This document shows, piece by piece, positions 1-50,296 of a stretch of 64,000 nt of DNA. The DNA is from Candidatus Marinacidobacterales bacterium (GTDB lineage Bacteria > Acidobacteriota > Vicinamibacteria > Marinacidobacterales > DATDRI01). Positions within the stretch are counted from its first letter, which is position 1. The number at the start of each line of letters is the position of its first letter. Position numbers and translations under genes: made by a program. The stretch spans positions 2,752,001-2,816,000 of the forward strand of contig OZ245365.1 of assembly GCA_965226495.1 (NCBI GenBank), in the 5' to 3' direction. The notes under the pieces are model-generated. The model worked only from the letters and a program-made list of their open reading frames with translations, ran no database searches and had not been told where the DNA came from.

Positions 1-505
1 TGTCCATGACCTCGGAGATCATGAGCATCCCGTTCTCATCCGCCGCTTCCCGTAGGTACTTCAAACCCTCTTCCCCGAGGCCCTGAAAGCTATAAGGCGA
101 CGTCCGAGGCTTGAAGGCTCCCCCGCGGAGGAAGGTCGCTCCCATCTCCCGCACGCTCGCCGCGATCTCCCTGATCTGTTCGCGACTCTCGACCGCGCAC
201 GGGCCAGCCATTGCCACCACCTCCGAGCCGCCGATGCTCACGTCCCCGATGCGAACGACAGTGTCTTCGCGTTTAAAGGTTCGGCCAGCGAGCTTGTAAG
301 GCTCGCTAATCCGCACCACCTCCCGCACTCCCACCAGCACTTCGAGATCGCGAGGATCCGCCGCGGTTTTCGGAATGCCGACCGCCCCGATGACCGTTCG
401 GGTCTCACCCGTTGAGCGATGAATGTCGTAGCCCCATTCGGTCAGACGCTCGATCACTTCTTGGATCTCCGTCTCTTTGGCTGTGTGCTCCATTATGATG
501 ACCAT
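1..505 (-). CDS. aroF: DAHP synthase class I-beta with N-terminal regulatory domain (3' part runs off the window)
   Basis: Manual translation from ATG at 505: MVIIMEHTAKETEIQEVIERLTEWGYDIHRSTG...PYKLAGR...AGPCAVES...LRGGAFKPRTSPYSFQGLG; GGAGG upstream; missing from the ORF track because truncated. Confidence 0.92.
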   Translation of the reverse strand, partial: MVIIMEHTAKETEIQEVIERLTEWGYDIHRSTGETRTVIGAVGIPKTAADPRDLEVLVGVREVVRISEPYKLAGRTFKREDTVVRIGDVSIGGSEVVAMAGPCAVESREQIREIAASVREMGATFLRGGAFKPRTSPYSFQGLGEEGLKYLREAADENGMLMISEVMD

Positions 506-519
506 GCTCTTCCTACCTC

Positions 520-894
520 CTACTTTTTCACTGTTTTGCGACTGGGCTTTTTCTTTTTTCGGGCACCGGACGATGTCTTCCTCGGCTTGGCACTTTCCAG
601 CTTAGGGCCCTCACTGCAAACAACTCGCTCCGTGCTTCTCGACTCGTCGATGATGCGCTCGAAGAGGCGGCGAACCGACTCTTCGTTTAACGGCCCCTCG
701 TTCGCGTTCGTGACCCGCTTGAGGATCAGAACCTCGCGGCTCGGCACGTAGATCTCCATGTTGTTCGCCCGCTTAATCCAACCGATCTCGATCGAGCACT
801 TCGCCCGCTGGTTCAACAACACCAACAGTCGATCGTCGACGGCGTCGATCTTCCGGCGCCAGCCGTTGACCGCACTTTTTACTTTGCTTCCCAT
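520..894 (-). CDS. Chorismate mutase (AroQ type) with basic C-terminal tail
   Basis: RRKIDAVDDRLLVLLNQRA...PSREVLIL...LFERIIDESR pattern; adjacent to DAHP synthase. Confidence 0.88.
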   Translation of the reverse strand: MGSKVKSAVNGWRRKIDAVDDRLLVLLNQRAKCSIEIGWIKRANNMEIYVPSREVLILKRVTNANEGPLNEESVRRLFERIIDESRSTERVVCSEGPKLESAKPRKTSSGARKKKKPSRKTVKK

Positions 895-895
895 T

Positions 896-1522
896 TCAAC
901 GCCTTCGTCTCTTCAGCTCCTCGCCTACTGCGGCCGGGGACACCCCCGCTTGTTCCCACAGCACGAGCAGGTGATAAAGAAGATCGGCAGACTCCCGGCA
1001 AAGTTCGTCGGCGTCGTTGTTCTTCGCCGCGATGATCACTTCGGCGGCTTCTTCCCCCACCTTCTTCGCGATGCGGTCCACACCCCCATCGAAGAGGCGG
1101 GCAGTATACGAGCCCTTGGGCCGTGTTTGGTGTCGGTCGCGAATGAGCTCCGACAGCTCGCCTATCGTTTCAGAAAACACGGTTTCACCGGGATTGTCAG
1201 CATCGGACAGTAATGGAGTGAAGAAGCAACTGGTTTGCCCAGTGTGACACGCCGGCCCCTCTGGTTGGACACGCACGAGCAAACAGTCTTGATCGCAATC
1301 GGCTATCACTTCGACGACCTTCATCACGTGGCCCGACGTCGCTCCTTTTCGCCACAACTCGTTGCGGCTTCTTGACCAAAAGTGAACGGCACCGGTCTCG
1401 AGCGTCTTGTCGAGGCTCTCTTGGTTCATGAAGGCGACCATCAACACGCGGCCACTCGTCGCATTCTGAACCACGGCGGGTATGAGGCCCCGGTCATCGA
1501 ACTGGACGGTCTTTTTTGACAT
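896..1522 (-). CDS. hisIE: Bifunctional phosphoribosyl-AMP cyclohydrolase / phosphoribosyl-ATP pyrophosphatase
   Basis: WSRSRNELWRKGATSG, DCDQD, GPACHTG, KKVGEEAAE, ESADLLYH. Confidence 0.96.
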   Translation of the reverse strand: MSKKTVQFDDRGLIPAVVQNATSGRVLMVAFMNQESLDKTLETGAVHFWSRSRNELWRKGATSGHVMKVVEVIADCDQDCLLVRVQPEGPACHTGQTSCFFTPLLSDADNPGETVFSETIGELSELIRDRHQTRPKGSYTARLFDGGVDRIAKKVGEEAAEVIIAAKNNDADELCRESADLLYHLLVLWEQAGVSPAAVGEELKRRRR

Positions 1523-1529
1523 CGGCTGC

Positions 1530-2312
1530 TCAGTTCCTTAGAGATCTGGACGATTGGGTTAGGCGGACTGGAACTCCGCGCTCAGCCAAGAATTTTTTAG
1601 CCTCGCGGACGCGATAGGTCCCGAAGTGAAAGACGGAAGCGGCAAGGACCGCGCTAGCCCTGCCTTCGGTCAACGCCTCCTCGAGGTGTTCGAGCGTTCC
1701 GCAGCCTCCGGAGGCAATGACCGGAACGGAGACTCCTTCGGCGATGGCGCGCGTGAGCCCTATGTCATAGCCCTCCTGCGTGCCGTCACGATCCATGCTC
1801 GTCAACAGAATCTCTCCCGCCCCCAGTTCCTCCGCCCGTTTCGCCCAGTCAACGGCATCGATCCCGGTCGGCGTCCGGCCACCGTGAATGAACACTTCGA
1901 ATCCATCGTTTCTCCGTTTTGCATCGATGGCAAGCACTATGCATTGTTTCCCGAACCTCTGGGCGCCCTCGTTGAGTAGCTCAGGCTCTTTCACCGCCGC
2001 CGTATTGATGGCGACCTTATCCGCCCCCGCTTCCAGAATGGATTTCATGTCATCCACCGTTCGAATACCACCCCCCACGGTAAAGGGGATGGTCAGAGTG
2101 TCGGCGACCCGCTCCACCATGCGACGCTGGATGGCTCGCTTCTCGTGTGAGGCGGTGATGTCCAAGAAGACGAGCTCGTCTGCTTCTTCTTCGTCGTAAC
2201 GCGATCCCGCCTCCACGGGATCTCCAGCGTCCACGATATCAACAAAACGCACGCCCTTGACCACGCGTCCCTGGTCGACGTCCAAGCAAGGAATGATCCG
2301 CTTGGCCAACAT
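1530..2312 (-). CDS. hisF: Imidazole glycerol phosphate synthase cyclase subunit
   Basis: [32 protein letters not shown]; true start taken as ATG 2312. Confidence 0.97.
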
Positions 2313-2313
2313 C

Positions 2314-3045
2314 TCAACCCGAACCCGTTCCTGCGGCGATGGCGTCTGCGAGCGTAAAGACCTTGTCATAGAGCGCACGACCGACGATGACCGCTTCCAC
2401 GCCGTCTGTCCGTGCCGGCCCAAGGCGAAGAAGATCTTCCAGCGACCCGATTCCACCCGAAGCGATGACGCGCGCTCCGGTTTCCTTAGCGAAGTGCCTT
2501 ACGCCGTCGACGTTGGGCCCAGTGAGAACGCCGTCCCGTGAGATGTCGGTGTAGATGAAACGGCGAGCACCTTCTTCCACCCATCGCTTCCCGAGCTCGA
2601 CGGGTCCGAGCGCCGAATCCTGCTCCCAACCGCGAATCGATACTTTGCCTTTCCTCACGTCGACCCCGATAGCGACCGCGTGAGGAGCGATCGTGAGCGC
2701 CTGTTTCACGACCGAAGGACTCTCGACTGCCGCAGTGCCGAACACCACACGCGTCGCTCCCGCTTTCATCAGCCACTCGAAGTCCGCTATGTCCCGAACT
2801 CCACCTCCAACCTGTACGGGGGTTTGGACCGCGCCGAGTATTTCTCGAATGGCGGAGCGATTCCCTCCCGGGCCATCGAATGCGGCATCGAGATCGACGA
2901 TGTGGAGGAGCTCCGCTCCTTGAGCCTGCCAAGCCAGGGCGACTTCCGTTGGATCGTCACCGTACACAGTTTCGGTTCCGCGCTCGCCCCGCACCAGCCG
3001 TACGCAGCGTCCCCCTTCGATGTCGATCGCCGGAATGATGGTCAT
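2314..3045 (-). CDS. hisA: ProFAR isomerase
   Basis: [38 protein letters not shown]; start could be upstream at 3081. Confidence 0.95.
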
Positions 3046-3077
3046 CGCGTCACCAGGTGTCGCCACTTGCCATGATT

Positions 3078-3689
3078 TCAAAGCGCCCGCCAGTAATTCG
3101 TCAGCACTCTTAGCCCAAGCTGCTGACTCTTCTCGGGATGGAACTGGATCCCTGCCACTCGATCTCTACTGGCCACCGAACAAAACGATACTTCGTAGTC
3201 GGTCTTCGCCTTGACCGCATCGCCTCCGTCTGGCTCAACGTAGTACGAGTGCAGGAAGTAAAAATAGTCGCCGGTCTCGACTCCCTCGAGAAGTGGGGCC
3301 GCCCCGTGGAGCTCGAGCTGGTTCCAACCAATATGGGGGACGGGACGTTGGGTCGAGAAGCGACGGACCTGTCCGGGAAGCAGGCCGAGCCCCGACACGC
3401 CGGGGGCTTCCTCGCTGCCGTCGAAAAGCAATTGGAACCCGACACAGATGCCTAGGAGTGTCGCGCCCTCCTCGAGGGCTTCCCTCAGGGGAGCCTCGAG
3501 TCCTCGGTCTCGAAGGTTTCGCATCGCCTCTCCGAAGTGTCCGACCCCGGGGAGGACCAGTTGCTTGGCGAGGCGGATCTCCTCGCGATCGGCGGAGAGC
3601 TTGCTCGGTGCACCGATGCGCTCAAAGGCACGCGCGACGCTCCCCAAATTACCGACGCCGTAGTCGACGACGATCAGATTCTCCGGCAT
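3078..3689 (-). CDS. hisH: Imidazole glycerol phosphate synthase glutaminase subunit
   Basis: DYGVGN, LPGVG, GICVG, VPHIGWN, QFHPEKS. Confidence 0.97.
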   Translation of the reverse strand: MPENLIVVDYGVGNLGSVARAFERIGAPSKLSADREEIRLAKQLVLPGVGHFGEAMRNLRDRGLEAPLREALEEGATLLGICVGFQLLFDGSEEAPGVSGLGLLPGQVRRFSTQRPVPHIGWNQLELHGAAPLLEGVETGDYFYFLHSYYVEPDGGDAVKAKTDYEVSFCSVASRDRVAGIQFHPEKSQQLGLRVLTNYWRAL

Positions 3690-3702
3690 GTGCTAGTCCC
3701 TG

Positions 3703-4293
3703 CTAATCTTGGAGTGTTCCTTTGGTCGACGGAACCGAGGAGCCTCCCGTTCGGCGGACCGCTTCGCGAAGTGACCGAGCGAAACCCTTGAAGACGGTTT
3801 CTATGATGTGGTGGTTGTTGTCCCCGTGAAGCGATTCGACGTGGAGAGTCAATCGAGCGCGCTCGGACAAAGCCCGAAAAAAATCCTGGAAGAGCTCGGT
3901 TGGAAAGTCTCCCACCCGATCAGAAGTGAAACGCACTCTCCAGCTCAGGTAGGGACGGCCCGAAAGATCCACCACGACTCGGGCGAGCGCCTCGTCAAGA
4001 GGAACGAATGCGGATCCAAAACGGTTGACTCCCGTTTTGTCACCGAGCGCTTCCTCCAAGCAATCACCGAGGACCAGCCCAACATCTTCCACCGTATGGT
4101 GGAAGTCCACGCGCAGATCGCCTTTCGCTTGCACTGACAGATCGAGGCTTCCGTGGTGAGCCAGCAGCTCCAGCATGTGATCGAGAAAACCGATCCCGGT
4201 ATCCACATCGGCCTTGCCGCTACCGTCCACGGTCAGCTGAACTGCGACCTGGGTCTCTTTGGTCGAGCGTTTCTTCTGGGCGGTTCGATTCAT
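3703..4293 (-). CDS. hisB: Imidazoleglycerol-phosphate dehydratase
   Basis: TGIGFLDHML, DFHHTVED, GDNNHHIIE, VPSTKG. Confidence 0.97.
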   Translation of the reverse strand: MNRTAQKKRSTKETQVAVQLTVDGSGKADVDTGIGFLDHMLELLAHHGSLDLSVQAKGDLRVDFHHTVEDVGLVLGDCLEEALGDKTGVNRFGSAFVPLDEALARVVVDLSGRPYLSWRVRFTSDRVGDFPTELFQDFFRALSERARLTLHVESLHGDNNHHIIETVFKGFARSLREAVRRTGGSSVPSTKGTLQD

Positions 4294-5396
4294 CGAAGCT
4301 CCTCCACCGTTTCGCAAAGAGCGTTTAGGAATTTTTGGTTCTCATCGGGCCGACCCACTGTCACCCTGAGCGCCCGGCTCAGGCTTGGGCTTGGGCTCGA
4401 GCTCAAGTTACGAACCAAGACGCCTCGGGCCAGCAAACCGTCGAACACCCGTGTCGCGCCGGCGTCGCAATCGAATAAGATGAAGTTGGCCTCCGACGGA
4501 TAGGGGTGAACGCCGTCCAGGTCGCCCAGCTTGCTATAGAGCGCATCCCTTTCTTCCACGATCACCTTGGCTTGCTTCCGGATGAGTCCGTAATGATCAC
4601 AGACCGCGAGGGCCACGGCGCGTGAGAAACCGTTCAGCGCATACGGCAGTTGTGCTTTCTCGACCTCTTCCGCGAGCTCCGGCGCCGCGAGCAAGTAGCC
4701 AATCCGGAGGCCCGCCAGTCCCATGGCCTTAGAAAAGGTGCGCGACAAGACCATGTGCGGATACCGGGGCAGCAGCTCCCTCGCGGCCGAGCCGCCGAAC
4801 TCGAAGTACGCCTCGTCCACGACCAAGATGCCTAAACATTCCTTGGCGATTCGCTCGATTTCCACTGTGCTGAGTGAGGAACCGGTGGGATTGTTGGGAG
4901 AGCACAAGAACACTAGTGAAGGCTTCGTCTCTCTCATCGCCCGGAGGAAAGCGTCAACGTCGTAGGTGTGATCCGCCCTCAAAGGAACTTCGACCATATC
5001 CGCACCCAGCATTCGACTGACGTAGCTGTACACGATGAAGGACGGAGTCGGGAAGACAACGCTTCGACCCCGCTCGAGCGTCGAGAGGGCTAGCATATGG
5101 AGTAGCTCGTTCGATCCATTCCCCACCAATACTCCATCGACCGGCCAGTCATTGAGCTTGCCCAGGGCGCTTTTGAGGTCGGCCGCTTGTACGGGTGGGT
5201 ATCGGTTGAGAGCTAGTCGAGATAGCGCGTCTCGAATGGCTCTTCCGATCGCCTCCGGCGGCTCATAGCTGTTTTCGTTCTGGTCGAGCTTGACCAATGC
5301 CGCGTGTGGCTCGAGTCGGTAGGCCCGGATCGATCGGACCTCGGGTCGCAAACGGCCCAGAAGCGGTCCCGCCAGATCTTTTTCGCCGCTTATCAT
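4290..5396 (-). CDS. hisC: Histidinol-phosphate aminotransferase
   Basis: KLDQNEN, GNGSNE, SPNNPTG, DEAY, RTFSKAMGLAGLRIG. Confidence 0.96.
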   Translation of the reverse strand: MISGEKDLAGPLLGRLRPEVRSIRAYRLEPHAALVKLDQNENSYEPPEAIGRAIRDALSRLALNRYPPVQAADLKSALGKLNDWPVDGVLVGNGSNELLHMLALSTLERGRSVVFPTPSFIVYSYVSRMLGADMVEVPLRADHTYDVDAFLRAMRETKPSLVFLCSPNNPTGSSLSTVEIERIAKECLGILVVDEAYFEFGGSAARELLPRYPHMVLSRTFSKAMGLAGLRIGYLLAAPELAEEVEKAQLPYALNGFSRAVALAVCDHYGLIRKQAKVIVEERDALYSKLGDLDGVHPYPSEANFILFDCDAGATRVFDGLLARGVLVRNLSSSPSPSLSRALRVTVGRPDENQKFLNALCETVEELR

Positions 5397-6685
5397 TCGG
5401 AGAACCTCGTGGCGATCGATCGAGCGTGGGCCTCGAACCCCTCAGCGCGAGCAAAGGCTTCGATGTCGTTTCGGTCACGCGACAATTTCTCGCGACTATA
5501 ACGAATCAGACTCGATCGCTTGATGAAATCATAGACACCCAGCGGCGACGCGAACCGCGCCGTACCCCCGGTCGGTAGAACATGGTTTGGACCCGCGTAG
5601 AAGTCACCAACCGGGACCGGCGAGCTCGCCCCGATGAAGATGGCTCCTGCGTTTTTGACGCGTTGCGCTAGCGCTTCTGCGCCGTCGGCCATAATCTCGA
5701 GGTGCTCAGGGGCCAATTTGTCGACCAAACCCAATCCCTGTTCCAGATCGGCAACCAATACCGCGGCCCCGTGTTTCTCGAGCACGGTGCGGATCATCGC
5801 AGCGCGAGGGAGGTCTTCCATCTGCTTGGTCATCTCGTCTCTCACGGCGTCGATCAGCTCGCGGGACGTGGTGACCAGAATGGCTCGCTCGTCTCCCGAA
5901 CCGTGCTCGGCCTGAGAAAGTAGATCGGCGGCGACGTAGCTTGGATCGGCCCCGCTGTCCGCAAGAACGATGATCTCGCTCGGTCCGGCGAGAGAATCGA
6001 TTCCTACCACGCCGTAGAGGAGCCTTTTCGCGGTCGTGACGTAGGCATTGCCGGGCCCGACGATCTTATCCACGCGCGGGACCGACGACGTGCCGTAGGC
6101 CATGGCGGCCACAGCCTGTGCGCCACCGATGCGAAACACCTCGTTCAGTCCAAGATATTCGATCGCTGCGGCAAGCGCAGGTGAACGCTCGATCGTACCT
6201 GGCGGCGTGCAGACGATGATTCTTCGCACACCGGCGATCTGCGCTGGTACCGTATTCATAATGAGAGTCGAGGGGTAGACCGCCTCCCCTCCCGGCACGT
6301 AAACGCCGACCGTATCGAGGGCACCGATCTTTTGCCCCAGGAGGCTGCCGTCTTCGAGCTCGACGCTCCAGCTCGCTTCCTTTTGCCGCTCGTGGAAGCT
6401 ACGGATGTTCTTCGCGGCATTTGCCAATACCGACCGAATCCCATCAGTAGCCTTGGCAGCTTCGGCGGAGATCTGCCGCGCATCCACTCGCAGTTCGGTT
6501 GGGGTCAAGCGAGCGCCGTCCAGCCGCTCGGCAAGCTCGACCAGCGCGTCATCCCCCTCGGATCGTACGAGTCGTATGATCTCTTCGACACGTGTGAGAA
6601 CCTCAGGGGACGCCACGCCCGCAACCGAGAGGTCGTCTCCACGTTCGGCGAGGAAGGCGTCCTGATTCTCGAACACCCGAATCAT
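5393..6685 (-). CDS. hisD: Histidinol dehydrogenase
   Basis: GVYVPGG, GPGNAYV, AGPSE, DLLSQAEH, APEHL, GPNHVLPT. Confidence 0.97.
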   Translation of the reverse strand: MIRVFENQDAFLAERGDDLSVAGVASPEVLTRVEEIIRLVRSEGDDALVELAERLDGARLTPTELRVDARQISAEAAKATDGIRSVLANAAKNIRSFHERQKEASWSVELEDGSLLGQKIGALDTVGVYVPGGEAVYPSTLIMNTVPAQIAGVRRIIVCTPPGTIERSPALAAAIEYLGLNEVFRIGGAQAVAAMAYGTSSVPRVDKIVGPGNAYVTTAKRLLYGVVGIDSLAGPSEIIVLADSGADPSYVAADLLSQAEHGSGDERAILVTTSRELIDAVRDEMTKQMEDLPRAAMIRTVLEKHGAAVLVADLEQGLGLVDKLAPEHLEIMADGAEALAQRVKNAGAIFIGASSPVPVGDFYAGPNHVLPTGGTARFASPLGVYDFIKRSSLIRYSREKLSRDRNDIEAFARAEGFEAHARSIATRFSE

Positions 6686-7320
6686 TACTCCACCTCGCTG
6701 GCCAAAGACGAAACGAATTCTCCCAAGACCCGCCCCTTGAGCCGAAAGCTGGCCCGATTGATGATGAGCCTCGCCGTGCTCTCGAAGAGCACTTCATCGA
6801 TCTCCAGTCCGTTGGCCGCCATGGTCTTCCCGGTTTGTACGAGGTCGACGATGCAGTCCGCCAATCCCAAAACCGGGGCGAGCTCGACCGAGCCGGAAAG
6901 GATAATCACTTCTACCGGAATTCCTTGACCATGGAAGTAGCGAGAAGCGACTTCGGGATACTTCGTCGCGACTCTCACCAACGGTAGATCCCGGTAGCCC
7001 CCGGGTCGCTGATTCTGGTGACGCGCCACGACCATCTGACAACGACCAATTCTCAGGTCGAGCGGCTGATAAACATCCGGGTTGGTCTCGGCCAACACAT
7101 CGTTCCCGACGATGCCGGCATCGACCACACCGTGCTCGACGTAAGTCGGAACGTCGCGATCCTTGACGAGCACCGACGACTGATCCCGTCCGTTTGAAAC
7201 GTGTAACTTCCTGGCCTCCCGCACGTCGTCCGGAAGTGCGAAGCCAGAGCGCGTAAGAAGCTCGACGGTTTCGTCAAAGATCCTGCCGGTGGGAAGCGCG
7301 AGGCGTATTGCGGTCGTCAA
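6685..7320 (-). CDS. hisG: ATP phosphoribosyltransferase, short form
   Basis: DVPTYVEHG, VATKYP, GSVELAP, DLVQTGKT; 211 aa, paired with hisZ. Confidence 0.96.
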   Translation of the reverse strand: MTTAIRLALPTGRIFDETVELLTRSGFALPDDVREARKLHVSNGRDQSSVLVKDRDVPTYVEHGVVDAGIVGNDVLAETNPDVYQPLDLRIGRCQMVVARHQNQRPGGYRDLPLVRVATKYPEVASRYFHGQGIPVEVIILSGSVELAPVLGLADCIVDLVQTGKTMAANGLEIDEVLFESTARLIINRASFRLKGRVLGEFVSSLASEVE

Positions 7321-8396
7321 CCTAACCTCACCTTCTCTCCCTTTTGTCTGAGTTCCATCGCTTCCCCGAGGGCTCGCGCTGGTTCTTTCTCGAGCGTGAT
7401 GGTCCTCGGTGTTTGTTCGGGCGAAAGTCTTTCTTCGTCGACCTTGTGCGCCAGGCGATCGAGAGACAGGGAAAAGCCAACCGCTGGATGCGCTACACCG
7501 AACTTCGTCAGGAGGGAGTCGTAACGACCGCCTCCTCCGAGCTCCAGTCCAGTGCCCGGGGCATGGAGCTCGAAAATCATTCCCGTGTAGTAATCAAAAT
7601 CTCGAACCTCGCCGAGATCAAATTGGATCCGCTCTCCGAAGCCAAGAGTGTACAGCTCCTTGGAGATGGCCTCGAGCCGCTCCAAAGCGGCTTGGCTCTC
7701 CGGCCGAGTGGCAACGGACTGTGCGCGTTCGAGGATCTCGGGTCCGCCGAACAGACGCATCGCTTCTAAGACCGCGGCCGGCACCTCTTTTCCCAGAACG
7801 CTACCGGCGCGATCGGCGTTTCGAGCTCGCATGGCCTCTAGGAGCTCCGGCTGAAGGTCGGGTGGCACCTCCGAATCCTCGAGCACACCGACCAAGAAGC
7901 CTGCATGCCCGAGCGTCAGAACGGCGTCGTTCACACCCAGTCGCCCCAGCGCCTCGAAGGCCACGAGCAGCACTTCCAAATCGGCGGCCAATCCATTGCC
8001 GATGTGCTCTAGACCGATTTGGAAGAGCTCCTTTTGCTGTCCCGCCTTGGGAGGTTGGTACCTGAGGACTTCGCCACTGTAGAAGAGTCGCAATGGCAAG
8101 GAACGGTCTTGCATCCGAGATGCAACGACTTTGGCCACCAGTGCCGTGAAATCGGGCCGGAGCGCCAACAACTCCCCTTCCCGCCCGATGAAACGGTAAA
8201 TGTGCTCGGCGAAACTCGGCCCCCCGGCGCGAGCAAAGACTTCGTAGTAATCGAAGAGCGGAACGATCACCTCTTCGTACGACCAGCCGGAAAAAACGTC
8301 ACCTACCACCCGCTCCACTTGCTTGCGAAGCCGCGCCTCACGCCCGTAGAAGCACTGCACTCCTGAGGGTATTTGTAAATTTGAACGCTGATTCAT
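7317..8396 (-). CDS. hisZ: ATP phosphoribosyltransferase regulatory subunit
   Basis: HisRS-like LALRPDFT, FQIGLE, FDYYTG, GGGRYD; directly upstream of short hisG. Confidence 0.93.
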   Translation of the reverse strand: MNQRSNLQIPSGVQCFYGREARLRKQVERVVGDVFSGWSYEEVIVPLFDYYEVFARAGGPSFAEHIYRFIGREGELLALRPDFTALVAKVVASRMQDRSLPLRLFYSGEVLRYQPPKAGQQKELFQIGLEHIGNGLAADLEVLLVAFEALGRLGVNDAVLTLGHAGFLVGVLEDSEVPPDLQPELLEAMRARNADRAGSVLGKEVPAAVLEAMRLFGGPEILERAQSVATRPESQAALERLEAISKELYTLGFGERIQFDLGEVRDFDYYTGMIFELHAPGTGLELGGGGRYDSLLTKFGVAHPAVGFSLSLDRLAHKVDEERLSPEQTPRTITLEKEPARALGEAMELRQKGEKVRLG

Positions 8397-8446
8397 ATTG
8401 CCTGCCGCATTAGCATATGGCCTTATTGGGGGTCAGATCCGGCGTC

Positions 8447-9922
8447 TCATCTCTTTTTCCGCCGGTGCATCTCGGCGCGGGCCGCGCCCTCCATCACGTC
8501 CGCGTTTCCCGCGCTTCCAGTCCATAGGTCCGACTGCCGCACCGCCTGCGCCACCAGCATCTCGAGACCTGGCACCGCGAAAGCCTTTCTCTCTCGGGCC
8601 AACTCGAGGATCTCGGTTTTCTCCGGGTGGTAGATCATATCCAGAACGAGAGCTCCGGGCCGGAACGCCTCCACCTGCTCCACGGAGCCGGCGTCGACGA
8701 GTCCTTCGTGCAAGGGAGTGGCGTTGACCAAGATATCCCATCGGTGAGCGGCAAGGTCGCCGATGTCGCCCGCATCCCCTCCCGCGAGTTCGGCGACGGC
8801 TCGCGCTCGCTCCAACCTACGCGCGAGAACGACGACCGCAGCACCCGCCTGTCCTAATCCAACCGCGGCGGCGCGCGCCGCGCCACCCGCGCCAAGAATT
8901 ACCGCGCGCTTACCCTCGATACCTAGACGACGTGACACCGGACCCACGACCCCATCCACGTCCGTGTTGAACCCGCACCACCGTCCGTCTCGAGCTACGA
9001 CGGTGTTGACCGCTCCCACTTGTTGAGCGGGCCCATCGATGTCATCTAGAAACGGCAGGATAGATTCCTTGAACGGCCGGGTCACCGAAAAGCCTGCGAC
9101 ACCAATCTCCTTGGCTGCCGGAACGAAGGAAGCCAGGCCCTCTTCTTCGAACGGAACGTAGACCGCATTCAATCCCTTGTGGACGAACACGGCGTTGTGC
9201 ATCGCCGGAGAGAGGCTACCGAGCGCCGGCCGCCCGAGAATCCCGTAAATCCTCGTCGCGTCGTCGACAACCCGAAAGCGATACGTGCCCAAGAGCTGAT
9301 CGAGATCGAGCTGCCCTGGTCCCGTGGCAGGCAACCCTCGGGCTGCGGCATAAGTGAGGTCAGCGCCAAACCGCTGTGCTAGCACGCGGCCCGCCGTACC
9401 GGCGGGTCCCATTGGGATCGGAGCGAATCCAACGCCACGATCTCGAGCGAGCCGACCCGCCTCACCGAGCCGAACCACATCGGCAAGAGAGTCTGCCCGC
9501 GCCGCAACCTTGACGATATCGGCACCCGCTGTCGTGGCCCGCTCCACGATCTCCGACAAATCGTCCGGGATACGATCGAATTTGTGGTGGGACAGAATCA
9601 GCCGCGAAGACGTTTTAACCGTGCGAAGCTCGTCGGAGAAGGAATCCAATTCGATGTCGACGAAGTCGAACCCGAGAACCAAGGCTCGTCGGAGAATCTC
9701 GAGGCGCTCGGACTCCGAACCCTCAAACACTCCTCCTTCTCTCTGCATTCGGCAGGTAAGGATGAGAGGCTTGGTGCCCGCTTTCCGGAGTCGCTCCAAA
9801 TCGAGGTCTCTGAGTCCGTCAACGCGGAGCTCCACGAGGTCGGCACCCTCGCACGCGTCGCCGGCCGCCCGGACCATCGCCTCGGTGGAAGGCGCCATCA
9901 CCGCGGCGACCACACGAGTCAC
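8447..9922 (-). CDS. aroE: Type I 3-dehydroquinate dehydratase / shikimate dehydrogenase fusion (AroD-AroE)
   Basis: N-half ADLVELRVD, ILTCR, LSHH, DIVK; C-half SLSPAMHN, SVTRPFK, GAVNT, NTD, GAGGAA; GTG 9922 after GGGAGGG. Confidence 0.92.
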   Translation of the reverse strand: MTRVVAAVMAPSTEAMVRAAGDACEGADLVELRVDGLRDLDLERLRKAGTKPLILTCRMQREGGVFEGSESERLEILRRALVLGFDFVDIELDSFSDELRTVKTSSRLILSHHKFDRIPDDLSEIVERATTAGADIVKVAARADSLADVVRLGEAGRLARDRGVGFAPIPMGPAGTAGRVLAQRFGADLTYAAARGLPATGPGQLDLDQLLGTYRFRVVDDATRIYGILGRPALGSLSPAMHNAVFVHKGLNAVYVPFEEEGLASFVPAAKEIGVAGFSVTRPFKESILPFLDDIDGPAQQVGAVNTVVARDGRWCGFNTDVDGVVGPVSRRLGIEGKRAVILGAGGAARAAAVGLGQAGAAVVVLARRLERARAVAELAGGDAGDIGDLAAHRWDILVNATPLHEGLVDAGSVEQVEAFRPGALVLDMIYHPEKTEILELARERKAFAVPGLEMLVAQAVRQSDLWTGSAGNADVMEGAARAEMHRRKKR

Positions 9923-9965
9923 TACCCTCCCTGCATTGGGATCGACGGTTGTTTTCCTCTTGTCC

Positions 9966-9997
9966 AAAAAAAAACCTCTTCAGGAAACCTGAAGAGG
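9966..9997 (-). terminator. Intrinsic terminator in the operon leader (attenuator)
   Basis: Minus strand CCTCTTCAGG-TTT-CCTGAAGAGG-T9, 44 nt before the first gene. Confidence 0.88.
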
Positions 9998-10071
9998 AAA
10001 ACACCGTCCGGCATCTTACATCCCCAGGCTCCCTATGCTGTGGCTAGCGTCGCCGCCGGCCAGGTGCCCAG

Positions 10072-10230
10072 CTAGGCCCCGTAATGGTACCGATGGTACG
10101 TAAGATGCCCGAAATTACCGTGTTGCCCCGTGTTCGATGCCAGGCATGACACGGCCACGCAAATACGAGCCCCGAGACACGGGGACGCCTCCAACCGCAA
10201 CATCAATAGGATCGTCACTCGTAGGCTCAT
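10072..10230 (-). CDS. Putative attenuator leader peptide, 52 aa, His/Tyr-rich C-terminus
   Basis: MSLRVTILLMLRLEASPCLGARICVAVSCLASNTGQHGNFGHLTYHRYHYGA*, located between promoter and terminator. Confidence 0.65.
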   Translation of the reverse strand: MSLRVTILLMLRLEASPCLGARICVAVSCLASNTGQHGNFGHLTYHRYHYGA

Positions 10231-10249
10231 GCTTACCCTTGCGCCTCAA

Positions 10250-10278
10250 ACGCTACACCCCCCACTTTTTCATGTCAA
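10250..10278 (-). promoter_or_regulatory. Sigma70-type promoter for the leader/his-aro operon
   Basis: TTGACA-17 nt-TAGCGT. Confidence 0.6.
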
Positions 10279-10303
10279 GTGACATCCGACCGAAGAGTTT
10301 TTT

Positions 10304-10319
10304 TGTGATTTTGATCACT
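10304..10319. promoter_or_regulatory. Crp/Fnr-like (or Rex-like) box
   Basis: TGTGA-TTTTGA-TCACT upstream of a cNMP-binding protein gene. Confidence 0.4.
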
Positions 10320-10398
10320 TCTTTTCTTGTATCGTCACCCATCGGATGCTATATAAAAAAGGTTCTCGATTTTATCGTGGACCGAATCGAGGCGCGCC

Positions 10399-10926
10399 GT
10401 GAATATAAAACGGATCTTGAGATCCGTCGTTTTCTTCGAATACGTCACCGAGCACCATGTCCAACAACTGGTGGACCTGGCGCGGTCGCAAACCGTGGAA
10501 ACCGGAGAGGTTGTCTTCTCCGAAGGTGAGGCAGAGAACCACCTCTACCTGATCGAGAGCGGCCGTATTCAGATCTCTCGGGAGGGGCCTCACTTCGGCC
10601 GCCAAGCCTTCGCGCTCCTCGGCCCGGGCGATCACTTCGGCGCGTTGTCGCTCTTTTACGCTGATCCCCACTTCGCGTCGGCCACCGCCGTCGAGACGAC
10701 GCGCCTTTGGATGATCCGCCACGACGACTTCCAGGCTTGCCTGCAGAAACAACCGAAACTAGCCTTCGCGGTTCTCAAGGGAATGGTGCTCGGCATCCGC
10801 ACCGCGAACGGCGAGATCCGAAAGCTGACGACACTTTTCGATCAACGATCTCGCTCGGAGATCGAGCTACCCGCAAAAAAAGATTCAACTCGCCCATCGC
10901 GGCCGCTCGCTCCACCGGCAACTTGA
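10399..10926 (+). CDS. Cyclic-nucleotide-binding domain protein (Crp/Fnr-like)
   Basis: GEVVFSEGE, LYLIESGRI, LGPGDHFGALSL, ASATA. Confidence 0.85.
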   Translation: MNIKRILRSVVFFEYVTEHHVQQLVDLARSQTVETGEVVFSEGEAENHLYLIESGRIQISREGPHFGRQAFALLGPGDHFGALSLFYADPHFASATAVETTRLWMIRHDDFQACLQKQPKLAFAVLKGMVLGIRTANGEIRKLTTLFDQRSRSEIELPAKKDSTRPSRPLAPPAT

Positions 10927-11034: not shown

Positions 11035-11127
11035 TACCCTCCCTTTGAACTATCATTGAGGTTGGTGATTCATTCACCCTCAAATTCTTCCGTGTTGCCG
11101 ACGCGGACTCTCGAGGTTCACTTAGGA

Positions 11128-13014
11128 ATGCCCATATCCGAAAGTCGGGCGGTAAAGAAGCTTCTGCCGGTCATTCTGTGGCTTTTCAGCGTTTCCGTCC
11201 TTCCCACGCTCGCCTCCGCCTCTCAAGGTGTCGAGATCATATCGGTCGATGCGGTCGAGCCCGGAATGGTGGGTGAAGGTCACACCGTCTTTTCCGCCGA
11301 GAAGATCGAAACGTTCAAAGTCACGATCATGGGCGTGCTACGAAACTATGGCCCCAACCAGAACATGATCTTGGCCAAGCTGGAAGGCGGTCCGCTCGCC
11401 GACACTGGCGTGATTGCCGGAATGAGCGGCAGCCCGGTCTACATCGACGGGAAATTACTCGGAGCGGTGGCCTACTCCTTCCCGTTCTCCAAAGAACCCA
11501 TCGCGGGAATCACCCCCATCGAAGAGATGATCGATGGAACCGCCACACCCATTTCACGACGTAAGGTGGCGAAGCTCGACTTTCCACTCACACCCGAGCG
11601 ACTGGAAGCCGTCGCCCCCCAACGGGTGCGGCCGGTAGCCATCCAGGGTGCGTCGCTCAGCGGAGCCGACCAACTCCGGCCCTATCTGGGAAAACTCCTT
11701 TCTCCCATTGCCACGCCCGCGTCACTCAACGGCTTTCTCCCGGAGACTTACGACATTGCCGCTCCGTTGCTGCGGGCGCTGGGGATGGAACCCCTGCTCG
11801 GTGGCGCGATGGTCCCAAGACTCCAGTCCGGCACCGAGATCGCGGAGATCACAACGCCTAACTCAGAGCTCACGTTGCGGCCGGGTGACGCGGTCGGAGT
11901 AGGACTCATTACGGGAGACATGGACTTGAGCGCCACTGGCACCGTGACCCATGTCGATCCCCTGACCGGAAGCGTCTACGCATTCGGCCATCCTCTTTTC
12001 AACCTCGGCCCCATCGAATACCCGATGACGAGAGCCAACGTGCATTTGGTCCTACCGAGCGTTTACAGCTCCTTCAAGTTATCGAGCTCCGGACCTACCG
12101 TGGGGACCTGGCTGCAGGATCGACACACGGCTATCAAGGGAAAACTGCGTAGCCGGCCAAAGATGATTCCCCTGTCCGTCCAGGTGAAGACCAGTCGAGA
12201 CCTGGAGAAATCCTACAATCTCGAGATCGTCAACGATGAGCTTTTCTCACCGGTGCTGGCATACGTGGCGCTGATGTCCATTCTCCAGTCCACCGAAAGA
12301 CAGTTCGGAACCGCGACCTTCAAGGTCTCGTCCTGGATCTCCTTGGCGGGCGAGCGACGCGTCCACATCGAGGACATCTTCGCGGACCAGCAACCGGCGC
12401 TGTCTGCATCCGCCATGGCGGCAGCCCCCCTATCTTTCCTCATGACCAACGACTTCGAGAAGGTCAAGGTGGAATCGATGAAAGTCTCGATCGAGGCCAC
12501 CGAGAGTCCACAAACCGCACGCTTGGTTCGGGCGTGGCTGGACACCGATCGCGTCGCCCCCGGCGGCACCGTCCCATTGAAGCTTCTACTGCGTTCCTAC
12601 CGCGGTGAGGATATTCTGAAGACGGTCAATGTGGACATTCCGGCCAACGTCGCGGAAGGTAAACTCAAGCTCCTGGTGGCCGATGCAACCACCATGTCGG
12701 CTTTGGAACGTCGCGAATCACACGATCGCTTCGAGCCGCGCAATCTAGATCAGCTCATTCGAGCACTCAACGCGCTGCGCAAAAACAACCGCCTGTACGT
12801 GAAGTTGACCAGCCCCGGTTACGGGGCCATCGTCGCGGGAGAGTATCTCTCTTCCCTTCCCCCCAGCGTGATGGACGTCCTGAAAGCAGATCGCTCAAGC
12901 GCAAGCTATATTCCTATCAATAGCGCGACCCTATGGGAGCACGAGCTGGTGACCGATTACAGCCTCAGCGGCGCGCGCGTTCTCGAGATCACGGTGGGCA
13001 ACTTCCTAAACTAG
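11128..13014 (+). CDS. SpoIVB/peptidase S55 domain protein
   Basis: GVIAGMSGSPVYIDGKLLGAVAY, AFGHP; signal peptide; start uncertain. Confidence 0.88.
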   Translation: MPISESRAVKKLLPVILWLFSVSVLPTLASASQGVEIISVDAVEPGMVGEGHTVFSAEKIETFKVTIMGVLRNYGPNQNMILAKLEGGPLADTGVIAGMSGSPVYIDGKLLGAVAYSFPFSKEPIAGITPIEEMIDGTATPISRRKVAKLDFPLTPERLEAVAPQRVRPVAIQGASLSGADQLRPYLGKLLSPIATPASLNGFLPETYDIAAPLLRALGMEPLLGGAMVPRLQSGTEIAEITTPNSELTLRPGDAVGVGLITGDMDLSATGTVTHVDPLTGSVYAFGHPLFNLGPIEYPMTRANVHLVLPSVYSSFKLSSSGPTVGTWLQDRHTAIKGKLRSRPKMIPLSVQVKTSRDLEKSYNLEIVNDELFSPVLAYVALMSILQSTERQFGTATFKVSSWISLAGERRVHIEDIFADQQPALSASAMAAAPLSFLMTNDFEKVKVESMKVSIEATESPQTARLVRAWLDTDRVAPGGTVPLKLLLRSYRGEDILKTVNVDIPANVAEGKLKLLVADATTMSALERRESHDRFEPRNLDQLIRALNALRKNNRLYVKLTSPGYGAIVAGEYLSSLPPSVMDVLKADRSSASYIPINSATLWEHELVTDYSLSGARVLEITVGNFLN

Positions 13015-48153: not shown

Positions 48154-49107
48154 ATGAGAGACAGACCGCGGATATCCGGCGTGCAGGTTCTCCGGATAGG
48201 AATCCTCGGGTTACTGCTCGGAGTTTCTGCTAGCTTCGGACGAAGCTCCCCCTCGTTCACTCCGCTTCCGGGCGGATCGAGGGTAGAGTCTTCCAGCCTC
48301 GATAGCCAAGCACTCCATGGGCAAGGGCAGTACTCCATTTTCTTCCCACCCTCCTACGACAGCAGCAAGGACACTTATCCGGTGATCTACTTCCTCCACG
48401 GGTTGTTCAACGACCACACGAGCTGGACCGATACCGAGCACGGCAATATGCCCGCGAAGATCGAACGGCTCATGTTGGAAAAAAAGATACCGGAAATGCT
48501 TCTAGTCCATCCCAACGGGGGTCGCAGCTTCTACACCAACTATTACGACGGACGCGTTAAATACGAAGACTTCGTGGTGAAGGAGCTAGTGGAACACGTA
48601 GAAACCACCTATCGCGCGAGAAAGGGGCGGCAGAATCGAAGCATCGCCGGAACCTCGATGGGGGGCTTCGGTGCCTTGAAGATCGCGATGAGATATCCGG
48701 ACATCTACGGGGCCGTTGCCGCGCATTCGCCGATTGTGTTCATCAACCGGAACCCGCTCGATGTTCCCCCAGAAGTGAAGTCGAGCCGGCGCTTCAGCTT
48801 CTTCAATGAGGTCTTCACTACGGTCTACGGTGACCCTCTGAACCAAGAGTACTACGATTCTAACAACCCCTTGGTTCTCGCGACTTCCGCAGATCTCAAT
48901 GGGCTGCCGATTTACTTCGACTACGGCACCGCCGACCGCTACAACCGGATCATCCAGCTCGGCCGAGGGCTGGAAGCTCTGGACCGAGCTCTCACGCAAG
49001 CCGGAGTGCCCCATGAATTCAAAGCGCATCCCGGCGAGCCACACGGGTGGGCGCTCGTCATGGCACACCTCGAGGAATCACTCGGCTTCGTGTCCCAATC
49101 CTTTTGA
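48154..49107 (+). CDS. Secreted putative esterase (alpha/beta hydrolase)
   Basis: YPVIYFLHG, GTSMGG, C-terminal HGW. Confidence 0.88.
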   Translation: MRDRPRISGVQVLRIGILGLLLGVSASFGRSSPSFTPLPGGSRVESSSLDSQALHGQGQYSIFFPPSYDSSKDTYPVIYFLHGLFNDHTSWTDTEHGNMPAKIERLMLEKKIPEMLLVHPNGGRSFYTNYYDGRVKYEDFVVKELVEHVETTYRARKGRQNRSIAGTSMGGFGALKIAMRYPDIYGAVAAHSPIVFINRNPLDVPPEVKSSRRFSFFNEVFTTVYGDPLNQEYYDSNNPLVLATSADLNGLPIYFDYGTADRYNRIIQLGRGLEALDRALTQAGVPHEFKAHPGEPHGWALVMAHLEESLGFVSQSF

Positions 49108-49177
49108 GGCGGCGTTGTGTTCACCCCCGACCATGCTAACCAAAGGTACCGTTCGCTTCGGGAGCATCTTCGTAACC

Positions 49178-50296
49178 ATGTTGCATCGATCGTTCCTGCT
49201 GGCCCTGGCGGCGCCGCTGCTCCTTTCCCCCTCCGCCTCGTCGTGCAGAGACGCCGGGGTCACGCAACCCCCCAAGCTTTCACAGAGCGAGTTCGGCCGT
49301 CTCGTCAACGAGCTCTCCGAGGAGGGCGGTTATTTCTGGAGCAACAATTTCATCTCCAATGAAACATCTTACCTTCATGCACTTCAGGCACTTGACGCGA
49401 TGGCACTATCCGGCGGCGTCTACCTCGGTGTGGGACCCAACCAAAACTTCACCTACATCGCCGAGCTACGGCCCCGCATGGCCTTCGTTGTCGACATCCG
49501 ACGCCAAAACATGCTGGAGCACCTTATTTTCAAGTTCCTAACCGAAAAGGCCAAGACTAGGCTCGAATATCTTTCGTTTCTCACCGGCAGACCAATCCAT
49601 GGGCCACCTCCTTCCCGAGATCTCTCCCTCGTCGAACTGGTCGAGATCATAGAAAACACCGCCCCCGATCCGGAGTTCACCCGCCAACTTTCGTCCCAGA
49701 TGACGGCAACCCTTCGTGCCTGGCCCGAACTCAGCCTGACTCCAAGTGACTTCCAGGATATCGAACGCATCTATCTGGAGTTTTCCAGACAGGGACTGGA
49801 CATAAAGTACGATAGCTGGCGCTCGTTCTTTTTCCCTACTCTTAAGCAATTCCTGCTGGAGACCGACCTGGAGGGTGTGCAGCGAAACTGGCTCGCGACC
49901 GCGGAAAGCTACGAGCTCGTGCGGAGCATGCAACTGGCTAACCTGATCGTTCCGCTGGTCGGAGACTTCGCCGGCAAGGGAGTTTTCCGGCGTCTGGGGA
50001 AGCTTCTTCGAGGAAGCGGGGATACCGTCTCGGCCTTCTATGTCTCGAACGTGGAGTTCTATCTATTCCGACAACGCAAATGGCAGCATTTCGTGAACAA
50101 CGTGAAGCAACTGCCAATGGACGACCGAAGCATCTTTATCCGTGCCTACGCGAACCTGCATCGCCCCCACCCGCAGATGGTCGGTGACCACATCACCGTA
50201 ACGCTGATCCAAAACGTGGAGACGTTCTTGAACAACGCAGACGAGGGTCGCTATCGAAGTCTGTGGGATGTCGTGACGCTCGACTACGCCCACTAA
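49178..50296 (+). CDS. Conserved-looking secreted hypothetical protein
   Basis: Signal peptide; LSEEGGYF...NFISNE, GVYLGVGPNQNFTYI, VGDFAG, FYVSNVEFYL. Confidence 0.75.
   Translation: MLHRSFLLALAAPLLLSPSASSCRDAGVTQPPKLSQSEFGRLVNELSEEGGYFWSNNFISNETSYLHALQALDAMALSGGVYLGVGPNQNFTYIAELRPRMAFVVDIRRQNMLEHLIFKFLTEKAKTRLEYLSFLTGRPIHGPPPSRDLSLVELVEIIENTAPDPEFTRQLSSQMTATLRAWPELSLTPSDFQDIERIYLEFSRQGLDIKYDSWRSFFFPTLKQFLLETDLEGVQRNWLATAESYELVRSMQLANLIVPLVGDFAGKGVFRRLGKLLRGSGDTVSAFYVSNVEFYLFRQRKWQHFVNNVKQLPMDDRSIFIRAYANLHRPHPQMVGDHITVTLIQNVETFLNNADEGRYRSLWDVVTLDYAH

Follow-up and report, generated by a model that had tools for sequence, protein, structure and literature searches.

Our goal was to understand whether a single leader peptide might place two separate pathways, those for histidine and for the aromatic amino acids, under one transcriptional switch. 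The question is raised by a 64,000-nucleotide stretch of the genome of a Candidatus Marinacidobacterales bacterium (Acidobacteriota, Vicinamibacteria; contig OZ245365.1, positions 2,752,001 to 2,816,000), which we refer to throughout as the window. On its minus strand, between positions 10278 and 9966, a putative promoter is followed by a short open reading frame (ORF), by an inverted repeat and by an intrinsic terminator. A preliminary description, made from the letters of the window, had read this arrangement as a ribosome-stalling attenuator responding to both His and aromatic amino acids. We conclude that the element is most likely a classical ribosome-mediated (leader-peptide) transcription attenuator. 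Each sequence-level feature of such a system is present, namely the ORF with its regulatory codons, a terminator, an antiterminator, an opposing helix that we call P1, and downstream genes of the matching pathways. All elements were located where the preliminary description had placed them, and coordinates are collected in Table 1.

The element occupies the 5' leader of a cluster of 12 minus-strand genes (positions 9922 to 2), identified from ORFs and Pfam matches, that combines aromatic and histidine biosynthesis. Hence, the operon is mixed, as the preliminary description had it. Both pathways are represented, with a fused aroD-aroE gene first, and chorismate mutase and DAHP synthase last. 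The products match the amino acids specified by the regulatory codons of the leader. Genes in the cluster overlap, or are spaced by no more than about 50 nucleotides (nt), and the terminator scan found no strong minus-strand terminator inside it; the whole cluster is probably a single transcript. The operon extends beyond chorismate mutase into the DAHP synthase gene, and its end lies outside the window.

The leader ORF has the composition originally described. Thus, residues 1 to 36 include no His, Tyr or Phe, while the last 16 include four His, three Tyr and one Phe, so that His, Tyr, Phe and Trp (H/Y/F/W) make up eight of these 16 positions. Note that Trp codons are absent from the leader in the window and present in relatives. 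The count of four His needs one correction. The His at residue 37 is Leu in P0122, a predicted peptide of 52 residues that is 90% identical to that of the window, with five substitutions, all in the first 37 residues. Hence, the conserved block is counted as three His, three Tyr and one Phe.

Taken one at a time, most of these features are unexceptional. The promoter scan called no site here, and the -10 hexamer agrees with TATAAT at only three of six positions. We retained the promoter because it is conserved in relatives, and it is likely that the TTGACA and TAGCGT hexamers are used as such. When all 64 kb were translated in six frames, 16-residue windows with at least eight H/Y/F/W residues occurred in four clusters, accounting for 11 of 89,555 stop-free windows; such composition is not rare, and alone is weak evidence. 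Similarly, 69 pairs of perfect inverted 10-mers, no more than 150 nt apart, occur in the window. We conclude that promoter, composition and inverted repeat are singly not beyond chance, and that the terminator alone is conspicuous, as the sole strong minus-strand terminator in positions 1 to 10400. The case for the element therefore rests on the combination of features, their position and their conservation in relatives. One other 16-residue stretch, at 49362 to 49409 on the plus strand, has eight H/Y/F/W residues and resembles the leader tail (H-L-T-F...R-W-H-Y). This stretch is out of frame within a 465-residue ORF (48899 to 50296), and we treated it as chance rather than as a second leader.

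Related loci were sampled via AroDE. The window protein was aligned with 31 homologues, and the alignment was used to scan species-representative genomes. The scan is represented by the best 80 of 598 stretches, and all locus counts refer to these 80. The gene order aroDE-hisZ-hisG-hisD was found in six of them (L001 to L004, L006 and L053). A leader of the kind described here precedes the operon in five of the six (L001, L002, L003, L006 and L053), and no such leader was detected in the other 74 loci by terminator scan, codon scan or blastn. In blastn searches with the leader, L001, L002 and L003 were matched; matches to L006 and L053 were weaker and covered the terminator only. Two H/Y/F/W-rich ORFs upstream of aroDE were rejected: that of L046 is an alternative frame of the upstream membrane-protein gene, and that of L066 has neither a start codon nor a terminator. 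The DNA comparison comprised two closely knit groups, with the window, L001, L002 and L003 forming class 1, and L006 and L053 forming class 2. The sources of the closest AroDE proteins (P0001 to P0004, 76 to 95% identical) lay outside this comparison.

In a four-way alignment of class 1, the block TCACTTGACA, which holds the -35 hexamer, is unchanged. The same is true of the TAGCGT -10 hexamer, at the 17-nt spacing noted in the preliminary description, and of the terminator stem with its T9 tract. All four sequences keep the leader ATG and a purine-rich tract before it, with AGGAG or AGGGA in relatives at the place of AAGGG in the window. They also share a conserved 45-nt block, which takes in the stop and the 14 codons before it. 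From the ATG to this block, conservation is poor. Starting at the shared ATG, each of the four sequences has an open frame, of 52 codons in the window, 41 in L001, 41 in L003 and 42 in L002. Hence, all differences in leader length are multiples of three. In L002, an in-frame insertion of 3 nt adds a Tyr codon. Between L003 and L002, the first 36 codons show 17 non-synonymous and two synonymous differences, with no third-position bias, and the N-terminal three quarters of the peptide is unconstrained. Two of the caveats attached to the original reading concern this part of the element. The weak ribosome-binding site stands, for the window. The competing GGAGG-GTG start falls: relatives lack it, and the part of the leader that holds it is not conserved.

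The tail of the peptide behaves differently. Here, Leu, Thr, Arg and stop codons change only synonymously (CTT/CTG, ACG/ACC, CGG/AGG and TAG/TAA, with TAA in L003). Of the five residues that vary, four do so by a change into the H/Y/F/W set or within it (F/Y, Y/F/L, Y/H and G/W). In the class-1 relatives, these residues make up 8 to 9 of the last 14 to 15. Once relatives are included, the codon set comprises His and all three aromatic amino acids, with Trp added to those of the window. Protein databases gave a consistent picture. A word-index search with a profile of the peptide found only P0121 and P0122, and a full scan of 1.84 billion protein representatives added P0126, a 40-residue peptide with the same tail and another N-terminus. 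Note that P0122 and P0126 were recovered as predicted genes, and their open frames are not independent evidence. No peptide relative, close or distant, was found beyond the leader family among these representatives. Three long proteins, P0123 to P0125 (1074 to 3138 residues), match the N-terminal part of the profile through 8 to 11 repeated stretches; this is most likely spurious similarity of low-complexity or repeat type.

L053 and L006 have a distinct 29-codon leader, upstream of the same type of operon, with the tail F-H-Y-W-H-P-stop. Six of the last 12 residues are H/Y/F/W. The putative promoter consists of TTGACA (read by eye), 17 nt and an AAAAT-type -10 element, and the ORF is followed by a hairpin with a stem of 11 to 15 base pairs (bp) that resembles the class-1 terminator. 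The two ORFs differ at six nucleotides, five of which are third codon positions and four of which are synonymous. This third-position bias is the pattern of a translated frame. Hence, class 2 shares the amino-acid theme of class 1 on a divergent nucleotide sequence. An alignment of both classes together, made with MAFFT, was not structurally meaningful, and the classes were analysed apart.

The leader RNA can form three mutually exclusive helices. The first, P1, pairs region 1, which lies within the regulatory codons, with region 2. Its core is the perfect 10-bp inverted repeat already pointed out in the preliminary description: positions 10100 to 10109 are the exact reverse complement of 10010 to 10019. 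The repeat finder did not list it as such, and it was confirmed directly. As isolated structures, P1 has a predicted free energy of -22.7 kcal/mol, and the stem of the terminator, also described correctly at the outset, one of -15.3 kcal/mol. The free RNA folds into P1 plus terminator in all six sequences, with the P1 partner segment 85 to 110 nt downstream of the regulatory codons. The 5' arm of P1 spans positions -38 to -21 nt relative to the stop. P1 encloses two hairpins, the second of which differs by 18 to 36 nt in length among relatives, at the same place in the fold.

The preliminary description could identify no helix that invades the terminator stem. Such a helix is present in all six sequences, where it competes with the helix formed by the His-Leu codons. 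It was sought with the first 32 nt of the tail masked and with the RNA ending where the terminator 3' arm would begin. In this masked nascent RNA, the alternative helix covers 4 to 10 of the 10 nt of the terminator 5' arm, and its own 5' arm overlaps the 3' arm of P1 by 10 to 19 nt. The antiterminator of the window has 20 pairs and, as a hairpin, -20.9 kcal/mol. A further pairing is peculiar to the window. An insertion of about 30 nt, absent from L001 to L003, contains the segment 9944 to 9961, which on the minus strand forms an inverted repeat with 9992 to 10008 (12 bp perfect, or 17 to 18 bp with one mismatch). The pairing would join sequence beyond the T-run to the 5' arm of the terminator and its left flank, and could re-fold the read-through transcript near the ribosome-binding site of aroDE.

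Several comparisons bear on whether these helices form a switch. First, region 2 was shuffled 500 times for each of the six sequences, with dinucleotide composition kept, and no shuffle matched P1 and antiterminator pairing together. For this test, the zone was the span of each class's own regulatory codons. Second, on the four-sequence alignment the antiterminator comprises 22 pairs, with 95.3% of cells paired and three pairs changed on both sides. Only 3 to 4 of 500 shuffles reached its score, and slid controls were 43 to 70% paired. Third, we scanned the position of the ribosome. Sequestration of the terminator 5' arm is higher with codons -14 to -5 in the A site; for the window, the value changes from 5.2 to between 8.7 and 9.9 kcal/mol, and comes back down at codons -4 to 0. 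L002 and L053 behave alike. A cruder calculation, the minimum free energy (MFE) fold of the whole leader with the ribosome footprint masked, gave a switch in the window, L001 and L003. An RNAalifold consensus of the four-sequence MAFFT alignment was mixed, with region 2 of the window one column out of register, and was not relied on.

Sequence analysis shows directly that the elements are there and conserved, that the three helices exclude one another, and which genes lie downstream. From these, we infer that the leader is translated, that ribosomes stall within it and that the system responds to each amino acid. The proposed mechanism is as follows. Transcription would begin at the TTGACA/TAGCGT promoter, and a ribosome would translate the 52-codon leader. 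With charged tRNAs plentiful, the ribosome would pass the His, Tyr and Phe codons and reach the stop, so that region 1 pairs with region 2. Formation of P1 would leave region 3 free to form the 10-bp terminator with its T9 tract, and transcription would end about 45 nt before aroD-aroE. If His-tRNA, or an aromatic aminoacyl-tRNA, were scarce, the ribosome would stall on codons -13 to -5 and mask region 1. Region 2, together with GCCUGG just upstream, would then pair with region 3. This antiterminator would consume the terminator 5' arm, and RNA polymerase would read into aroDE, hisZGDCBHAF-IE, chorismate mutase and DAHP synthase. Entry by read-through fits the spacing in relatives. The GTG of aroDE follows the end of the T-run by only 13 nt in L003 and L002, compared with 44 to 53 nt in the window. 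Since 13 nt leaves no space for a separate promoter, the operon must be entered by read-through.

A number of observations weigh against this mechanism, and should be set beside those above. With only six DNA sequences, in two closely knit groups, the statistics are weak. The syntenic loci are close kin, so the association between leader and synteny is not a set of independent events. The alignment statistics are only indicative, as they draw on four sequences and on a structure derived from L003, one of the four; the three compensated antiterminator pairs all come from the lineage of the window. The terminated state is 89.2% paired and, P1 included, shows no covariation above shuffles (297 to 382 of 500 were as high). 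A comparison with relatives had been proposed as a check of the original reading, and supports it: H/Y/F/W codons are kept or interchanged and the antiterminator has its compensated pairs, although the terminated state lacks a corresponding signal. In an earlier version of the shuffle test, with a fixed zone at -40 to -18 nt, class-2 P1 did not stand out from the shuffled sequences (402 and 317 of 500).

Folding results are also uneven. In L001 and L003, the antiterminator is still favoured while the ribosome sits on the stop codon, and the leader relaxes only after release. L006 responds weakly, at three ribosome positions only, and the baseline of the sequestration scan is non-zero (1.6 to 6.6 kcal/mol). 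In the whole-leader MFE calculation, L002 and both class-2 sequences mostly still form the terminator. Class-2 terminators have a poor T-tract, and failed a strict terminator scan. The leader itself is long (41 to 52 codons), its regulatory codons are interspersed rather than tandem, and its ribosome-binding site in the window is weak.

Finally, L004 has the synteny and no leader of this kind. Upstream of its fused aroDE-thiF gene is a weak short ORF (3835 to 3912) with three His among its last nine residues, and no terminator was found after it. This may be a decayed, or different, His leader. The L004 gene (3959 to 6460) encodes AroD-AroE fused to a ThiF/MoeB-type adenylyltransferase domain (PF00899), and is followed by hisZGD. 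Such AroD-AroE-PF00899 fusions, of about 830 residues, are frequent among the Vicinamibacteria homologues (P0006, P0013, P0019 and P0036 to P0102).

If the mechanism is accepted, we must still consider which amino acids are sensed. The most serious alternative is that the same mechanism responds to one amino acid only, most likely His, or only Phe, with the other codons being passengers of RNA structure. We consider this unlikely, while noting that it has real points in its favour. In the class-1 tail, no residue other than His stays unchanged at three positions; those held by aromatic residues drift (Y/F/L, Y/H and G/W), and the window lacks a Trp codon. Furthermore, several codons of the tail form part of P1 or of the enclosed hairpin, where RNA structure constrains them anyway. 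There is also a precedent. The aroR leader, upstream of aroF in Corynebacterium glutamicum, has Phe-Tyr-Phe codons and acts by ribosome-mediated attenuation (Neshat et al. 2014, as described in PMC11802643 and PMC4046766); according to PMC11802643, it responds to Phe, with Tyr supply having no effect. Hence, the presence of a codon does not prove a response. Against sensing of a single amino acid, variable tail positions stay within H/Y/F/W in four cases of five, which is far more than expected by chance, and L002 has gained an extra, in-frame, Tyr codon. Class 2, with different nucleotides, again mixes F, H, Y and W, and the operon has genes of both pathways at both ends. On balance, the chances are even that sensing truly extends to His together with one or more aromatic amino acids. 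The fuller version, where the leader is a four-input OR gate (His, Tyr, Phe and, in most relatives, Trp) and each shortage opens the joint supra-operon, could equally well prove right or wrong.

A second alternative dispenses with translation. The ORF might be untranslated, and the block a ligand-, tRNA- or protein-binding RNA switch (a riboswitch, a T-box-like element or a TRAP/PyrR-like target) acting on the same terminator. The conserved block is indeed highly structured, and the ribosome-binding site of the window is of little help to the translated reading. Other frames of the same GC-rich leaders are also open for 30 to 60 codons, so that an open frame is itself weak evidence. We regard such a switch as improbable. 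Searches with Rfam gave no matches at gathering score for the whole window, nor for L001, L002, L003, L006 and L053. With E values up to 10, positions 9850 to 10450 gave seven noise matches, with no T-box (RF00230) and no leader family among them; these were microRNA, CRISPR and long non-coding RNA models, with a terminator-like match to anti-hemB. Membership in the T-box, His_leader (RF00514) and other Rfam amino-acid leader families was thus rejected, as there was no covariance-model match. The ATG, the stop and in-frame indels are kept, Leu, Thr, Arg and stop codons vary synonymously, and the class-2 leaders differ at third positions in five of six cases. Moreover, the two nucleotide-divergent classes have a common amino-acid theme and no common RNA motif.

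That the ORF is instead a small functional protein with its own T9 terminator, and aroDE-his is expressed from a separate promoter, is very improbable, since the length of the ORF, the annotation of P0121, P0122 and P0126 by gene callers, and the 44 to 53 nt between T-run and aroDE in the window are outweighed by an N-terminus free of constraint, by the 13-nt gap in L002 and L003, by an antiterminator architecture that would be purposeless, and by the lack of peptide relatives outside the leader family among the representatives searched.

Table 1. Features of the attenuator and of the downstream gene cluster in the window (position 1 is the first letter of the stretch).
Feature	Position	Strand	Details
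-35 hexamer TTGACA	10273–10278	minus	Leader promoter, read from the sequence
-10 hexamer TAGCGT	10250–10255	minus	17-nt spacer after the -35 hexamer
Shine-Dalgarno-like purine tract AAGGG	10236–10240	minus	5 nt before the leader ATG; weak; putative ribosome-binding site
Leader ORF	10072–10230	minus	52 codons plus TAG; ATG at 10230, stop TAG at 10074–10072
Regulatory codon block F-G-H-L-T-Y-H-R-Y-H-Y	10081–10113	minus	Codons -13 to -3 before the stop; 3 His, 3 Tyr, 1 Phe
Region 1, 5' arm of P1 (anti-antiterminator)	10095–10112	minus	Within the regulatory codons; core GGCATCTTAC at 10109–10100
Two hairpins enclosed by P1	10024–10091 (approximate, from MFE)	minus	First over the last codons and stop; second a variable-length stem-loop
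Region 2, 3' arm of P1	10007–10023	minus	Core GTAAGATGCC at 10019–10010
Antiterminator 5' arm	10010–10031	minus	Shares 14 nt with region 2
Region 3, antiterminator 3' arm	9985–10005	minus	Takes in all 10 nt of the terminator 5' arm and the loop
Intrinsic terminator	9966–9997	minus	10-bp stem (9997–9988 with 9984–9975), 3-nt loop, T9 at 9974–9966
aroD-aroE fusion	GTG 9922 or 9913 to 8447	minus	First gene of the cluster; Pfam DHquinase_I and shikimate dehydrogenase
hisZ, hisG, hisD, hisC, hisB, hisH, hisA, hisF, hisIE	After aroD-aroE, in this order	minus	Pfam
Chorismate mutase, type II	894–520	minus	Pfam CM_2
DAHP synthase	505–2, runs off the window	minus	Pfam; N-terminal ferredoxin-like regulatory domain

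On the far side of the leader, the next gene is divergent and encodes a cNMP-binding protein (10399 to 10926, plus strand). Just within the 5' end of this ORF, at 10409 to 10428, is a hairpin of 7 to 8 bp with T-rich tails on both strands, which the scan called terminator-like in either orientation. Beyond it, a homologue of the SpoIVB-type S55 peptidase (11056 to 13014, plus strand) is a conserved neighbour of the leader. In L004, an S55 peptidase homologue (1839 to 3674) is directly divergent from aroDE.

We now return to the leader-peptide attenuator. Its recognition gives an attenuator predicted in Acidobacteriota a function and would account for three short 'hypothetical proteins' in public sets (P0121, P0122 and P0126). 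If the reading is true, the codon content of the leader tracks operon content across unrelated pathways, and the locus offers a simple, testable case of cross-pathway co-regulation. The common shikimate pathway, the Phe/Tyr branch point and the whole histidine pathway would be jointly controlled, and a cross-pathway interlock would have evolved in Vicinamibacteria. To judge from the literature searched, Acidobacteriota would thereby gain their first described leader-peptide attenuator. That literature, which left out most subscription journals, yielded no account of a leader mixing His with aromatic codons, nor any of leader peptides in Vicinamibacteria.

How does the element compare with known systems? 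The closest parallel in mechanism is hisL of Escherichia coli and Salmonella (RF00514), a short ORF with His codons, in the 5' leader, that heads the his operon. In both cases, the helices are exclusive (1:2, the 2:3 antiterminator and the 3:4 terminator) and the position of the ribosome decides between them. The hisL leader has 16 codons, whereas those described here have 41 to 52 (29 in class 2). In place of a hisL-type tandem run of three to seven His codons, there are three to four His codons among those for Tyr, Phe and Trp. Furthermore, the first regulated gene is aroD-aroE rather than a his gene, and the phylum is Acidobacteriota. According to PMC9413887, there are also predicted His-leader attenuators in the Bacillus cereus group, Peptostreptococcaceae and Erysipelotrichales.

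The aroR leader resembles ours in having mixed aromatic codons in a leader peptide that controls a gene of the common aromatic pathway. It differs in having neither His codons nor his genes downstream, and no sequence similarity is expected.

Multivalent leaders are well known in E. coli. Thus, thrL has Thr and Ile codons, ilvL and ivbL have Leu, Val and Ile codons, and any single shortage relieves termination. As in those cases, codons for several amino acids are mixed in one leader peptide here. Unlike thrL, ilvL and ivbL, each of which serves one branched pathway, our leader concerns the separate histidine and shikimate/aromatic pathways, which are brought together by the operon and by the leader alike. 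To our knowledge, mixed-codon attenuators are otherwise known only within one pathway family (Thr/Ile, Ile/Leu/Val or Phe/Tyr).

The joining of these pathways in one transcription unit, as is likely here, has its own parallel in the aromatic supraoperon of Bacillus subtilis (aroFBH-trpEDCFBA-hisC-tyrA-aroE). There, control is exerted by the TRAP protein and T-box elements rather than by a leader peptide, and the content and order of genes differ. HisC-type aminotransferases are able to serve both the His and the aromatic pathways, and an enzyme of this type could provide a metabolic reason for co-regulation. The class of mechanism is itself known; the novelty lies in a cross-pathway codon set mirrored by a cross-pathway operon, in a long leader with interspersed codons, and in the phylum.

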